Made by a program: the position numbers. From Candidatus Micrarchaeia archaeon (GTDB lineage: Archaea; Micrarchaeota; Micrarchaeia; Micrarchaeales; CABMGC01), in the NCBI GenBank assembly GCA_049976305.1, contig JBMFIM010000009.1, positions 1-34,434 of the forward strand: a DNA stretch of 34,434 bases, written 5' to 3'. The number at the start of each line of letters is the position of its first letter. The first letter of the stretch is position 1. Below, in pieces: positions 6,001 to 12,000 of the stretch.

Positions 6001-9000
6001 ATAACATCCGCAAGATAGAGGCGCATGTACAAGGCTTAAACATAAGCCAGGAAATAAAGAGCAAAATAATCGGCGAGCTCGAATACCTGCTTGGAGCTAT
6101 AATGGAAAAGCCTAAAAGCGCCAGCTGGAAGATTAGGGCAAAAATAGGAGAGCGAGTAAGATGGTATGCGCTTCCTGAAGAAGTTGGTATAGCTGCGCCA
6201 CAGCCCGAAGAGCTTTCATACAGGTGGGTAAGCTTTAGCGAAATGGACAAGATGGCAAAGGCAATAGCTGATAAGGTCCTGAGTAAGTATGGAAGGCCAG
6301 GGGCGATAGTCTACATAGAGCGTGGCGGAATGGTCTTTGGGACCCTTTTAGCGAAATACCTGCATGTTAGCAATATTGCCGGCTTGCAGGCGATTAGCTA
6401 CAAAAGACTCGGCGAAAGAGGGAAGACAGTTTTGTTGCAGAGGCGTGTGGACATAGTACCAAAAGGGTATGTGCTTCTTGCTGATGACATCGCAGATACA
6501 GGCGAGACACTGAGGAAGGTTTCAAGCCTGCTTTCAAAAAAGTACAAGCTGATAACAGCTACTATTGCGTATAAGCCAAGATCGGTAGTTGCGCCAGACA
6601 TTTATGGAATGAAAGTAGACAACAACACTTGGATAATCTTCGATTACGAAGAAAAGGAGGTTATGGACAGCCTTAACGGCAAAGTAACACCGATGGCTTT
6701 TGGAGCGGAGGAAAAGGCATATGCCCAAACAAAGGAAAAGTGCAAGCAGGTTGCTTCTGCTCTTGAAGCAAAATCATTCAAGCCCGATGCAATAATCTAT
6801 TCTTTAGGCTCTGCAATAGAGGCAAGACTGCTGAGCGACTATCTGGATGTCAAGCGTGTGGAGGGAATAAGCAGCAACAAGGAGCTAAAGCCTCAGCTTG
6901 CCAAGCTTCCGAAAAGCAGCAGGCTACTTATAGTTGCAGGAGCTTACGAAGCGGAGAAAATAGAGAAGGGCATAAGAAGGATACGGCCCGGAATGAAGAT
7001 AGAGATAGCAAATTTTGACTAGCTTCTTTTAGAGGCTCCCGTCGCCATTTTCGCCAAGTAAAAATTGAGGAGGCAATAGGTTAAGACCTGGTCTGGGCGA
7101 GAGTTCGGTTTTTCTGGCAATGAGTCTATAGCCCTTACGAGGTCCTCGTCTATGTGGAGAATGTCCTTAAGCTTTATCATTTCCTTAAGCTCTTTGCTAT
7201 AGATCTCAAGCACCGCGCCTAGGTCTTGTTTATTTATAATAAATCTGAATATTTTTGCAACTTCTTCAACATCTAATTTTTCAAGTGCGCTTTTTAGCGC
7301 ATTTATTTCGAAGCTTTCAGCATTTACGCCAAGCTCCTTGTACTTAACAGCAAGATTTGGATGCATTTCTGCCTGTTGCTGAAAGGAGTAATTGAGAAGC
7401 CCCTGAATAAGGAACGTTTTTGCCATTTCCTTGTCTATGCCCAAGCTTTCCAAGCTCTCACTAAAGCTCCTCTTTTTTATCAGCAAGCAATCGTGTATAA
7501 ATTTGGTATGAAAAATTAAATAAATCTGCTTTTACTTTGCAGCATTTGTTTCTGCAAGCTTGCTTTTTCATAATTCCCTTCCTGAATAAAATCAAAAGCA
7601 ATATATTTTGTCTAAGTAAACAAACTAAGGAGAAATATGGCTGTCCTGACAAAGAGTGAAATAATAAAGCTGATTAGACAAGGCAAGCTCAGAATAGCTC
7701 CATTCAACTACAGCCAAATTGGCGCTGGGTCGATAGATTTGCATTTAGGGAAGGAGTTGCTGATTTTTCGAAAGACAAAGAAAGTCATAGATTTGGAGGA
7801 GGGTACGGATTACAAAGAACTCGGAAAGAAAATAGAAATGGGTAAAGAAGGCATAGTGATAAAGCCGGGTCAGTTCGTAAACGGAATAACGGAGGAGAAA
7901 GTAACGCTGCCTAAGGGATACGCCGCAAGAATAGAAGGCCGTTCAAGATTTGCAAGAATAGGTCTGTTAGTCCATGTGAGCAGCGGGTTTATACAGCCCG
8001 GCACAGAAGGCAAGATAGTGCTTGAAATTGTGAATTTTTCGCCAAACAAGATAAGGCTCAGGCCTGGCGTAAAGATCTGTCAGATAATAATAGAGGAGGC
8101 AAAAGGAAAAGATGCATACTCCGGCCGCTTCTATGGCCAGACAAACATCTAGGTTTGGCGAAGTATATCAAAAGCCATAAAATCCTACACGGGGGAAGGC
8201 TATTATGCAATTGTTGCCTTTTGTAGAAAAGCTAAATTCGGAGAACAAACTGCTTCACATTTCGAAGGAAGTCAGTACAGATTATGAGATTGCAGCATAT
8301 CTAAAGAAATACGACGGTAGGCCGGTGGTTTTTGAAAATGTCAAAGGTTCGCAGATAAAAGTAGTAGGAAACCTAATGAGCAACATGGACTTATTCTGCG
8401 AGTGGCTTGATATAGACAAGAGGGCTTGGATACAAACTCTGAAAAATGCGATAGAGAATCCAGGCACGTTTAGAGAAGCAAGCAATAACCCATTTATGTT
8501 TTATGAGCCGGATCTGCCATCCCTGCCAATACTCAAGCACTATCCAAAGGACCAAGGCAAGTACATAACCTCTGGCGTGGTTTTTGCCAGCAGAAATGGA
8601 ATTAGAAATATGTCTTTCCATAGGCTTGCGGTGCTTGGGGAGAATAGGCTTGTTGGAAGGCTTGTTGAGCAGAGAGATTTGCATATGCTCTACCTAGATG
8701 CCAAGGAACACGGCGAAGACTTGGACGTGGCGATAGCAATAGGCAACAGCGCAGGCGTGCTTGTGGCTGCCGCCACTAGTGTCGAAAGAGGGAAATACGA
8801 GCTTGGCATTGCCTCTGCTTTAGAGAGAAGGCCCATCGAAGTTGTGCAGGCAAAGACCAACACAGCGCATTATCCTGCCGATTCTTTGATTGTGCTTGAA
8901 GGTAAGATTCTGCACGATGAGACGGCAAAAGAAGGTCCTTTTGTTGATCTTACCAATACCTATGATATTGTACGGGAGCAGCCTGTGTTCGTAATAGACA

Positions 9001-12000
9001 GGGTAGCGATGCAAAAAGACGCAGTTTATCAAGCGCTTCTCCCCGGTGGCAACGAGCACAAAATACTCATGGGCGCGCCAAGAACTCCAACAATCTACAA
9101 AGCCCTTGCCGATTCCGGAATAGATGTGGCAGACATTTATCTAACAGAAGGCGGCAGCGGCTGGTTAGACGTGGTTATAGCGATAAGGAAAAAAAGCGAG
9201 GAAGATCCCAAAAAGGCCTTCGATGCAGCGATAAAAGGCCATAGAAGCCTGAAGAAGATAACAGTTGTTGACGATGACATAAACCCAAGAGACGCCAACG
9301 ATGTGAATTATGCAGTTACTATGTATTGGCGTGCAGGAAAGGAAACGGTGCTTGACAATGTAAAGGGCTCTTCCCTAGATCCGATGGCCACGCCCGATGG
9401 CTTCGGGAGTAAGCTTTTCATAGACGCTACAAGGCCTTTGAATGTTCCTGAGGAAAAGCTGCTTAAGATGAAAAAGGCAAGCATGGATTTCAAAATAGAT
9501 GGTTGATACAATGCCTGAGCTTTTTACGAAACAACAAATATCTTGGCTAGATGATGTGGACAAAGAGGGCAACATAATCAATCCAAAGCATGAGCTTTAC
9601 GGAAAGAACATAGCCGGCTCAATTTTGCACATGCCTGCAGCTTCTGGCTCCACTGTTGGAGCGGATAGGCTTGTCAACTTGGCAGTGCATGGCAAGGCAC
9701 CAAAGAAGATAGTTCTTGAGCGCACAGACCCCATCACTATGTGGGGCGCAATACTTGGCAATGTTGACTTGGAAATAGAAGGAAGGGAGAAAAAACCTAT
9801 TGACAGGAGCAAGCTCGACAAGCTAGGCTTAGAGCCTGAGATTGCAGAGTTTCTTGCTAGGGCAGGCGAGCTTTTAGGTACAGATGAGTTTATCCCGGCA
9901 GATTATGTGCAGATAGCAGGCGTAAGCTACAAGACGATTACAGAAACAGGTCTAGAACTGAGAAGATATTTTGCTTCAAAATACAGGTTTAGAGCTAGAA
10001 ACGTAACAATAAACCCGGCAGGCATGGATCTTGAAGCTTGGCAGAGGCAAAACATACCGAAGGAATTTGCAGAGAAGCAGAAGGAAATAATAGACCTTTA
10101 CATTAAGATGGGCGCTCTGCCTACCATAACGTGCACTCCATACCTTGTGGGCAACACGCCCCCGCCATTTACCGACGCTTTTCTTTCAGAGTCTTCAGTG
10201 GTTACGCTTGAGAATTCCCTGTTTGCAGTAAGGAGTAATAGAGAAGCAGGCTTGAGCACGCTTCTTTACGCTATTGCAGGATACGGGCCTAGGTACGGGT
10301 TGCATTTGCAGGAAAACAGGAAGCCAAAGCTCGAGGTAAAGGTTGAAACAGAGCTAAGCGGAGCTGTAGACTATGGGCTTCTCGGCTACAAGATCGGAGA
10401 GCTAGCAAATGGAAGAATTCCATACATAACTGGCATAAGCTCATTGCCCACTATAGAAGAGTTCAAAGAGCTTGCCGCAGCGAGTGCGGCTTCTGGTTCT
10501 GTAGACCTTATGCATATCGAAGGCATAACGCCAGAAGCGAAGCACAAGATGATCAGGCTTGACAGTATCGAAGAAAAGGTAGAAATAGATAGGCAGACTC
10601 TCAATGATCTGAAGGAGGAGCTTAACACAGCAGTTCCTGAGGAGATAGACCTTCTCGCAATTGGTTGCCCACACGCTTCAATAAATGAAATAAAAGAAGT
10701 TGCCACGCTTATAAAAGGTAAGCATCTAAAAGCAGGCAAGCAACTCTGGATAACGACGTCGCGCACCGTCAAGGAAATAGCCCAGAAACTTGGTTATGTA
10801 AGTATTATAGAAGAGGCAGGAGGGCAAGTGGTAGCAGATACCTGCATGGTGGTCTCGCCAATAGAAGACCTTGGCTTTGCCACCACAGCTACAAACTCGG
10901 GCAAGGCTGCAAAATACCTTCCTAGATTTTGCAAGCAGAAAGTAGTGTTCGACGACCTTCAGACGCTGCTCTCAAAAATCATAGAATAGCATAAAAGCAT
11001 AAAAAGATAATTTTATATCTCGGAATGGCAAAAATCTAATTACGATTGGATGAAGTACATCGTTACATCAGCGCTGCCTTATGTGCAAGATGTAATTCAT
11101 TTGGGCAATTTGGTAGGCTCGATATTGCCAGCCGACATTTTCTACAAATACCTTGTTATGAAAGGCGAGGATGCAATATTCATATGCGGATCTGATGAGC
11201 ACGGCTCTGCGATAGAAATTGCAGCGCTCAAGCAAGGAACCACGCCAAAAGAACTTGCAGACAAGAATCATGAGAAACTGAAACAACTTCTTACAGATTC
11301 CTACCTGTGTACTTTTACCCATTATGGCAGAACAGGCACTGAGCAGAACAAAGAAATTGTGTACAATATATTCAACGCCTTGGACAAAAACGGCTATTTG
11401 GTAGAAGTTAGGAGCGAGCAACCATATTGCAATGTCGACAAGCGTTTTATCCCTGACAGGTTCATAGAAGGCACGTGCCCTTATTGCGGCTATGAGCATG
11501 CGCGTGGCGACCAATGCGACCGCTGTGGCAGGCTCCTTACCCCAAAGGACCTTATAAACCCGCATTGTAATATTTGTGGCAAAAGCGACATAACCTTCAA
11601 AGAGGTTAAGAACCTTGCCATAAACCTAGAAAAGCTCCAGCCTAAAATAAAGGAATACCTTCTTTCGCATTATTCAAACAGTTGGAGCAAAAACGCAATA
11701 AACAACAGCCAAGGCTATATAGAAAAGGGGCTTAAAAACAGGGAGATTACTAGAGAGATCAAATGGGGTTTTCCGGTTCCGAAAGCCGGCTTTGAAGATA
11801 AGGTGTTTTATGTATGGTTCGATGCGCTTATAGGCTACATTGGAATATCATACGAGTACAACAAGGAAGTTGCGGAGAAGTATTGGCTCGGCAACACTAC
11901 TAGGCTCATTCAGTTCATGGGTAAAGACAACATAGAGCCGCATACGCTTTTATGGCCCGGCATGCTCATAGGAAGCAATCTGGGTTATGTTCTGCCTACT

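Follow-up and report, generated by a model that had tools for sequence, protein, structure and literature searches.

The closest described system is the Aeropyrum-type archaeal mevalonate pathway, in which phosphomevalonate dehydratase (PMDh; aconitase X, AcnX, type IIb) and anhydromevalonate phosphate decarboxylase (AMPD), a UbiD-family enzyme, act together with UbiX/PFS. On the general view, UbiX produces prenylated FMN within the same cell that consumes it. PMDh has been described as a heterodimer (PMC8184944, PMC10040528), and other Micrarchaeota encode the same pathway as a UbiX-AMPD-PMDh-L-PMDh-S operon with two subunits and UbiX inside the operon. A different arrangement is found in Ca. 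Micrarchaeum harzensis (PMC8975820), which uses a Thermoplasma-type lower route with other enzymes (M3K, M3P5K, MBD) and no special cofactor, with gene flow inferred from host to symbiont.

Here, we analysed a window of 34,434 nucleotides (contig JBMFIM010000009.1) from a Candidatus Micrarchaeia archaeon, referred to as G000; other G numbers denote comparison genomes. The locus shares with the Aeropyrum-type pathway the same two enzyme families in adjacent genes, the same cluster cysteines and substrate-binding residues, and a genome with MVK and IPK but without PMK/DMD. It differs in that PMDh is one chain with Asn53 replaced by Thr, that the genome lacks UbiX, and that IDI-1 takes the place of IDI-2. 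The fused form is about 42-46% identical to the Micrarchaeota operon proteins. As in Ca. M. harzensis, it belongs to a Micrarchaeota symbiont that depends on a host and whose mevalonate route is patchy and has moved horizontally (PMC8975820). The pathway itself is already known; the fused single-chain form without UbiX is a new variant.

A predicted single-chain phosphomevalonate dehydratase

The decarboxylase and dehydratase genes lie on the same strand and overlap by 8 nt (Table 1). Both dehydratase domains (PF01989; PF04412 at aa 117-491) share one reading frame, and the internal ATG agrees with the start of homologues; the 492-aa chain given in the preliminary description is the one read from that codon. 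Of the 120 top-scoring homologues, some 110 span the whole fused chain with both domains. The fusion is thus no assembly slip, and the two-gene module of AMPD plus a single-chain, small-plus-large PMDh is confirmed. A promoter scan, a method unsuited to archaea, gave matches at chance level.

Table 1. Features of the AMPD-PMDh module in the window
Feature	Position	Strand	Details
AMPD-type UbiD-family decarboxylase (putative anhydromevalonate phosphate decarboxylase)	8205..9506	+	433 aa; UbiD_N/UbiD/UbiD_C, TIGR00148
Aconitase X in one chain; active site of type IIb (phosphomevalonate dehydratase)	9499..10989	+	496 aa (492 aa from ATG at 9511)
Swivel domain, small-subunit equivalent	9538..9765	+	PF01989 aa 14-89; catalytic Ser47-Thr48-Val49 (492 numbering)
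Segment linking the former small and large subunits	9766..9846	+	Interval separating both Pfam matches
AcnX large-subunit equivalent	9847..10971	+	PF04412 24-399 of 400; C208, C386, C445 (492 numbering)

Compared with TkAcnX, the archaeal enzyme built from two subunits, the fused chain has 17 of 18 active-site residues in common. In an alignment to 7cnr_A, C208, C386 and C445 correspond to the cluster ligands Cys110, Cys283 and Cys342, and all three are invariant across 30 fused homologues. Among MVA5P-binding and catalytic residues, 14 of 15 are retained, the comparison covering Ser62, Thr63, Val64 and Leu27 of the small subunit and Ala47, Gly48, Val49, Ser50, Asn53, Asn79, Glu129, Ser130, Ser131, Lys361 and Tyr365 of the large one. 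The sole substitution, Asn53 to Thr142, recurs among split large subunits, 37 of 131 having Thr there as well. Type-I site C has no cysteine here, a valine standing two residues past C445, and the type-I residues (Cys-X-Cys, Trp35, Thr72, Asp203, Ile206) are replaced by Val447, Leu13, Val49, Ala136 and Ser139, as in type IIb.

The chain is also compact. The swivel domain is shortened at both ends, aligning to residues 20-106 of the 134 in TK1248, and the large-subunit part lacks the first 22-23 positions of the PF04412 profile. Its predicted structure (pLDDT 93) superposes on the TkAcnX large subunit with a target-normalised TM of 0.91, and the joining segment is modelled as two short helices at pLDDT 81-93. 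Compared with monomeric type-I AcnX, which is alike in being a single chain with the domain order 4-linker-1-2-3, this PMDh is about 80 residues shorter and has type-IIb cluster ligands and pocket. The chain thus combines the single-chain 4-1-2-3 architecture of type I, without its residue signature, with one ORF across its homologues in place of the two separate subunits of type IIb. These residues suggest an enzyme that works like type IIb without being a type-IIb member by architecture. The fused clade falls, with 100% support, within the split type-II sequences sampled, which points to a fusion event separate from that of type-I AcnX and would make this the second fusion case within the aconitase X family. 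A natural, shortened single-chain PMDh could also be a handy component when the ATP-saving mevalonate route is built into E. coli, where engineered strains already use it (PMC12547664).

The decarboxylase and its pathway context

The decarboxylase contains three UbiD domains and the RXnEX4(E/D) motif (R140, E243, D248), and keeps N135 and E199. It matches TIGR00148 above cut-off (328 bits) and falls below cut-off for all six specific NCBIfam UbiD models. It groups with, and adjoins, PMDh-linked UbiD proteins, not menaquinone or aromatic-acid types, and has 59 invariant positions in common with 42 split-module AMPDs. Of 81 positions conserved among two-subunit-module AMPDs, it keeps 62; the other 19 are changed across the fused clade. 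In its catalytic and metal-site residues it matches prenyl-FMN enzymes, and Thermoplasmata orthologues from UbiX-bearing genomes have the same ones, so the conserved residues make a need for prenylated FMN likely. A His-to-Asp change at position 158 was considered as a sign of cofactor loss and rejected, the Asp being present in 13 of 13 UbiX-bearing Thermoplasmata copies and the position variable family-wide.

Beyond the module, G000 encodes HMGS, HMGR (truncated where contig C28 ends), a single mevalonate kinase, IPK, IDI-1, GGGPS and SufBD. The archaeal modified mevalonate set of HMGS, HMGR, MVK, PMDh, AMPD, IPK and IDI is therefore represented, without PMK, DMD, PMD or BMD. The GHMP decarboxylase family is found in 0 of 8 fused-module genomes versus 52 of 89 others (p 0.0015, related genomes not being independent), and module-less congeners listed have it in 3 of 3 (g26) and 4 of 4 (g38) cases. 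IPK adjoins AMPD in G049, and IDI-like and polyprenyl synthase genes adjoin the module of a deep fused relative. Searches located no HMGR in G016, G044, G049, G058 or G281, so that the route there would need outside mevalonate as well.

Both genes are under purifying selection, with dN/dS of 0.04-0.09 at dS 0.4-2.3 in three pairs, similar to MetRS and TyrRS. Residues, genome context and the exclusion of other lower routes thus support well the earlier assignment to the archaeal mevalonate bypass, and we predict with high confidence that the fused chain dehydrates mevalonate 5-phosphate and that AMPD carries out the decarboxylation.

Absence of UbiX and the probable cofactor source

No UbiX was detected in G000, as had been claimed: PF02441 gave no candidates, TIGR00421 none at E<=1, and a six-frame hmmsearch --max run, its profile built from 10 UbiX proteins, a best E of 2.5. 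The wider claim that no relative with the module has UbiX holds for the fused form in Micrarchaeota and for G032, and fails for G069, a member of the same order whose two-subunit module has UbiX directly upstream, and for Thermoplasmata. Across 101 genomes of the order, AcnX occurs in 10, its fused form in 8 and PF02441 in 12, with PF02441 in none of the 8 fused-module genomes. Nor is the lack of UbiX peculiar to this module: 19 of 31 genomes of the order retain UbiD but have no PF02441, ten genomes besides those with the module keep another UbiD type without PF02441, and G015 combines a broken UbiX with an intact UbiD. As several lineages keep UbiD under selection without UbiX, the cofactor would have to travel between cells or another supply exist. 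In Thermoplasmata with the fused module, UbiX lies at a separate genomic site (5 of 5); because it is universal in that group with or without AcnX, and is never linked to the fused module, this is no proof that the fused-module AMPD needs it.

From the observed gene content, residues, selection and exclusion pattern we infer, with a probability of about 0.6, that this host-dependent member of the Micrarchaeota has a functional archaeal mevalonate bypass, with prenylated FMN supplied by the host. The fused Fe-S enzyme would convert mevalonate 5-phosphate to trans-anhydromevalonate 5-phosphate, which the UbiD enzyme, still running on prenylated FMN, would decarboxylate to isopentenyl phosphate; IPK and IDI-1 would then yield the IPP and DMAPP that go into ether lipids. 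The cell would produce neither FMN nor prenylated FMN and would acquire the finished cofactor from its host or a neighbour. In the absence of a UbiX gene, ready-made prenyl-FMN from another cell is the probable source. Riboflavin kinase of either type is absent from all 5 fused-module genomes tested, although G044 and G049 carry the FMN-dependent IDI-2. Some points weigh against outside supply: we know of no prenyl-FMN transporter, and reduced prenylated FMN is oxygen-sensitive. In culture, moreover, Micrarchaeum and its host showed no cytoplasmic contacts (PMC8975820). Literature searches returned no description of prenylated FMN passing between cells and nothing pertinent on a diffusible Pad1-Fdc1 cofactor.

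The preliminary description had left the cofactor source between the host and an unknown enzyme, and host supply is now favoured. Self-supply, in which imported FMN would be prenylated by a moonlighting enzyme or one other than UbiX, or in which the AMPDs of this clade would use another cofactor state, is unlikely, yet it accords with UbiX lying next to the fused module in 0 of 20 loci (Thermoplasmata included) versus 13 of 16 Micrarchaeota-titled two-subunit loci with it adjacent, with the spread of the module among UbiX-less lineages of two families, and with the 19 clade-wide AMPD changes. The retained prenyl-FMN-type residues weigh against it, as do Asp158 in 1 of 23 UbiX-linked AMPDs and the fact that UbiX is also lost where the order has unrelated UbiD types. 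No module-linked flavin prenyltransferase candidate emerged among 776 G000 ORFs. The 16 genes common to G000 and G281 but absent from G065 include none so annotated, in a comparison that is blind to order-wide enzymes and covers G012 and G006 in part. The module-linked proteins recovered were only IPK, an IPK paralogue, IDI-1, Nudix, IMPDH, HAD, DUF1599, Yip1, SfLAP-like and membrane proteins, and one that we take from its sequence to be a probable SAM synthetase.

Action of the gene pair on another substrate, such as cis-3-hydroxy-L-proline as in monomeric type-I AcnX, is very unlikely: domain order and whole fold are closest to that enzyme (TM 0.89 to AtAcnX) and NF051439 is the top NCBIfam match, but it scores 271 bits where the cut-off is 700, and identity is 39% to TkAcnX-L versus 25% to monomeric type I, while the type-IIb-like replacements and the mutual exclusion with GHMP decarboxylases argue for a mevalonate role. 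Equally hard to sustain, if not harder, is a relic or idle module in cells that take lipids from the host. Host-derived lipids are reported for a cultured Micrarchaeum (PMC8975820) and one Thermoplasmata copy (L072) is frameshifted, but the low dN/dS opposes this idea, as do the reading frames, which are intact in each of the 10 Micrarchaeota genomes. Least probable is a UbiX that was missed through MAG incompleteness or divergence: completeness is 83-94%, and single-contig G281 scores 94% without end overlap, but a search that gave no UbiX in any of the 10 fused-module genomes of Micrarchaeota was positive in 61 of 61 MAGs of free-living Thermoplasmata, and a six-frame search of the whole G281 contig gave a best E of 1.5. 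The absence thus survives this objection.

Spread and origin of the fused module

The fused module of Thermoplasmata is nested inside Micrarchaeota sequences in both gene trees. A quick large-subunit tree had placed G281 inside the Thermoplasmata clade, and a first reading had the symbionts taking the module from that group; full-length trees, in which G281 is sister to the clade, weaken this reading. Since AU tests do not reject monophyly of the remaining Micrarchaeota sequences (p 0.26 and 0.17), the direction of transfer is unproven. We tentatively suggest that an essential step of a DPANN symbiont uses cell-to-cell prenylated FMN or a UbiX-independent UbiD, and that a compact module shaped in symbionts may have passed to free-living Thermoplasmata, opposite to the way such transfers usually run. 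A search for the source of G032's two-subunit module, made with too strict an E-value limit, found no donor. Among metagenome loci, 3 of 80 were scored as fused, one of them probably an over-long ORF. Deep fused relatives comprise P0108 and P0111-P0115.

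A two-gene module with a predicted single-chain dehydratase

In the genome of this Candidatus Micrarchaeia archaeon (G000; 723 kb, scored 93.7% complete), the window, contig C9, carries two ORFs overlapping by 8 nt, which encode a UbiD-type decarboxylase (probable AMPD) and a probable phosphomevalonate dehydratase (PMDh, an aconitase X, AcnX). The preliminary description of a two-gene module with a single-chain PMDh was borne out: both PMDh domains lie in one frame, and the fusion is real, since of the best 120 homologues about 110 have the two domains along their full length. 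Starting instead from the second ATG (9511), the protein is 492 aa long and aligns with the homologues' starts. Some homologues already carry the database name "phosphomevalonate dehydratase large subunit". The adjoining dCTP deaminase and MetRS genes are conserved around the pair only in the closest relative.

Coordinates of the module and of other features (window positions unless another contig or locus is named)
Feature	Positions	Strand	Remarks
AMPD-type UbiD decarboxylase	8205-9506	+	three UbiD domains; TIGR00148 passed
Fused AcnX/PMDh	9499-10989	+	PF01989 at aa 14-89 and PF04412 at aa 117-491
Ku gene and adjoining ATP-dependent ligase gene	429-2190		end-joining repair pair
Clustered amino-acid-permease family transporter, adenine phosphoribosyltransferase, metallophosphoesterase and nucleotidyltransferase-phosphoribosyltransferase fusion	2362-7022		last-named fusion: 47% match in G006, none in G065 (related genomes)
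PolX-PHP gene	16998-18734		
Second IPK-like kinase of G000	C16:202-1371		above NCBIfam cut-off; adjoins Nudix gene; one in G044 also
UbiX of G015	L022:1474-2016		
Thermoplasmata fused gene	L072:9980-11478		two frames (frameshift or sequencing error)

Elsewhere in the window, the Ku-ligase pair together with PolX-PHP is an uncommon combination for a reduced archaeal genome.

Alignments revealed that 17 of the 18 Thermococcus AcnX residues named for cluster, substrate and catalysis (Watanabe et al., PMC8184944) are kept in the fused PMDh; the odd one, Asn53, is replaced by Thr142, and 37 of the 131 split large subunits likewise have threonine there. Type-I AcnX residues are replaced in the same way as in type IIb. 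The overall fold of the predicted structure (pLDDT 93) is that of monomeric type-I AcnX (TM 0.89; 25% identity), while the protein's sequence is nearer to the type-IIb large subunit (39% identity). Its swivel part has lost residues from either end. The fused PMDh is thus predicted to hold a type-IIb active site within a single chain. PMDh is described as two subunits in PMC8184944 and PMC10040528; the fusion in itself is modest because type-I AcnX is also a single chain.

The decarboxylase passes none of six specific UbiD models and possesses the UbiD motif RXnEX4(E/D) (PMC5818171) as R140, E243 and D248. It keeps 62 of the 81 positions conserved across 42 split-module AMPDs; the C-terminal domain holds the majority of the 19 changes, and the fused clade as a whole shares most of them. 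N135 and E199, presumably metal ligands, are also kept. Comparison of 9 Micrarchaeota and 13 Thermoplasmata AMPD copies of the fused module revealed no cofactor-site difference.

UbiD enzymes without UbiX

According to PMC13198327, and by implication in PMC8184944, AMPD depends on a prenyl-FMN synthase. PF02441, the UbiX family, was detected in 12 of 101 genomes of the order, in none of the 8 with the fused module and not in G032, a congener of G000; TIGR00421 was found in 19 of 179 genomes, none with the fused module. Five further genome entries gave 0/5 at E<=1; three repeat genomes already counted, and UbiX was thus found in 0 of 10 distinct fused-module Micrarchaeota genomes. In unfiltered six-frame searches the best hit had E 2.5 in G000 and, over the entire contig, E 1.5 in G281, a fused-module genome in a single 777-kb contig scored 94%.

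The claim that UbiX is missing here and from every relative with the module holds for fused-module Micrarchaeota but fails for the split form: in G069, UbiX, AMPD and two PMDh subunits are consecutive. UbiX is adjacent in 13 of 16 Micrarchaeota-titled split loci and nearby in 0 of 20 fused loci, some loci being short. A divergent split module without UbiX occurs in G032 (L002), adjoining mevalonate kinase and near HMG-CoA reductase (HMGR).

The lack of UbiX beside UbiD is general in the order, not confined to the fused module. UbiD occurs in 31 of 101 genomes, including all 12 with PF02441; of the 19 others, 10 have other UbiD types only, mostly menaquinone-like. In the single-contig genome G015, UbiX is interrupted early on by a stop codon in frame and truncated at the other end by an IS605/TnpB element, with UbiD intact; its congener G081 has UbiD and lacks UbiX. 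Menaquinone-type UbiD adjoins a UbiA prenyltransferase at seven loci (L025, L028, L030, L038, L039, L041, L050) in genomes without PF02441, among them single-contig G029 and three-contig G011.

This repeated, well-controlled lack of UbiX beside UbiD enzymes under selection is the point of interest; the fused module is a real, conserved variation on a known pathway. The literature searched, with most subscription journals and supplements outside its scope, contained no report of a single-chain PMDh or of AMPD without UbiX; 'fused', 'fusion' and 'UbiX' are absent from the main text of PMC11052028, as are 'UbiX' and 'UbiD' from that of PMC12892359.

Mevalonate route and cofactor supply

G000 encodes HMG-CoA synthase, IPK, IDI-1, GGGP synthase and SufBD; its HMGR, cut by a contig end, adjoins the sole mevalonate kinase found. 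AcnX occurs in 10 of 101 order genomes (8 fused, 2 split). Of the 8 fused-module genomes, 7 have one GHMP kinase each and G016 has none. Members of the GHMP decarboxylase family occur in 54 of 101 genomes and in none of these 8; against 52 of 89 others (a set without G032, G069 and two unpublished genomes), p is 0.0015, an overstated value since kin are not independent. HMGR was not found in G016, G044, G049, G058 and G281, nor HMG-CoA synthase in G281, G006, G044 and G049; HMGR of G006 is split over two frames. Retention of the lower route in the five genomes without detected HMGR suggests mevalonate uptake.

In the most likely reading (probability about 0.6), the fused Fe-S enzyme would convert mevalonate 5-phosphate to trans-anhydromevalonate 5-phosphate, which the decarboxylase would turn into isopentenyl phosphate using prenylated FMN taken from a host. 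Archaeal riboflavin kinase was found in 16 of 101 order genomes, none with the module, and riboflavin kinase of either type in 0 of 5 tested module genomes; two of these five encode FMN-dependent IDI-2, and these cells therefore appear to import flavin nucleotides in any case. A cultured Micrarchaeum attaches to its host, from which it presumably draws lipids and metabolites; no contact between the cytoplasms of that pair was observed (PMC8975820).

That the cell supplies its own cofactor by an unknown route is a less probable reading. Sixteen of 776 G000 ORFs, including the module, IPK and IDI-1, are matched in G281 but at best weakly in G065, a genome lacking UbiD; no evident flavin prenyltransferase is among them, in a comparison blind to any enzyme shared throughout the order. 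G012 (560 of 772 kb compared) and G006 (365 of 760 kb) add little. Action on another substrate seems improbable, and an idle module slightly more so: dN/dS in three pairs was 0.044-0.060 for AMPD and 0.038-0.094 for PMDh, compared with 0.065 for MetRS and 0.030 for TyrRS. Least probable of all is a UbiX present but missed. The genomes are MAGs, an objection raised at the outset, yet the 0/10 result stands, as UbiX was recovered from 61/61 control MAGs, all from G101's order of Thermoplasmata (58/58 without three unpublished), and single-contig G281 was negative.

Distribution and history of the fused module

Under a strict threshold that distant fused forms may escape, the fused N-terminus was detected in 9 genomes among the 401 of the phylum, every one from this order and scattered patchily over 6 genera and 2 families. 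Both proteins are 60-70% identical to Thermoplasmata-titled records, probably of the Lutacidiplasmatales. In the Thermoplasmata order, AcnX occurs in 17 of 61 genomes, 5 of which appear fused, judged from where the profile match begins (one was checked); GHMP decarboxylase accompanies all 5 versus 0 of the 12 others, the pattern expected of later addition.

Full-length trees of both genes placed the Thermoplasmata sequences in one clade, sister to G281 (100/99-100) and nested in Micrarchaeota sequences, so transfer from symbiont to free-living Thermoplasmata is the simpler, if tentative, reading; an earlier quick tree had put G281 within Thermoplasmata, and monophyly of the remaining Micrarchaeota was compatible with AU tests (p 0.26, 0.17). 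G049 and G016 are sisters (100) although from different families, pointing to probable transfer within the order. Two metagenome contigs (L160, L161) carry deep-branching fused PMDh of about 50% identity, one adjoining IDI-like, polyprenyl synthase and Trm1 genes and the other AMPD.
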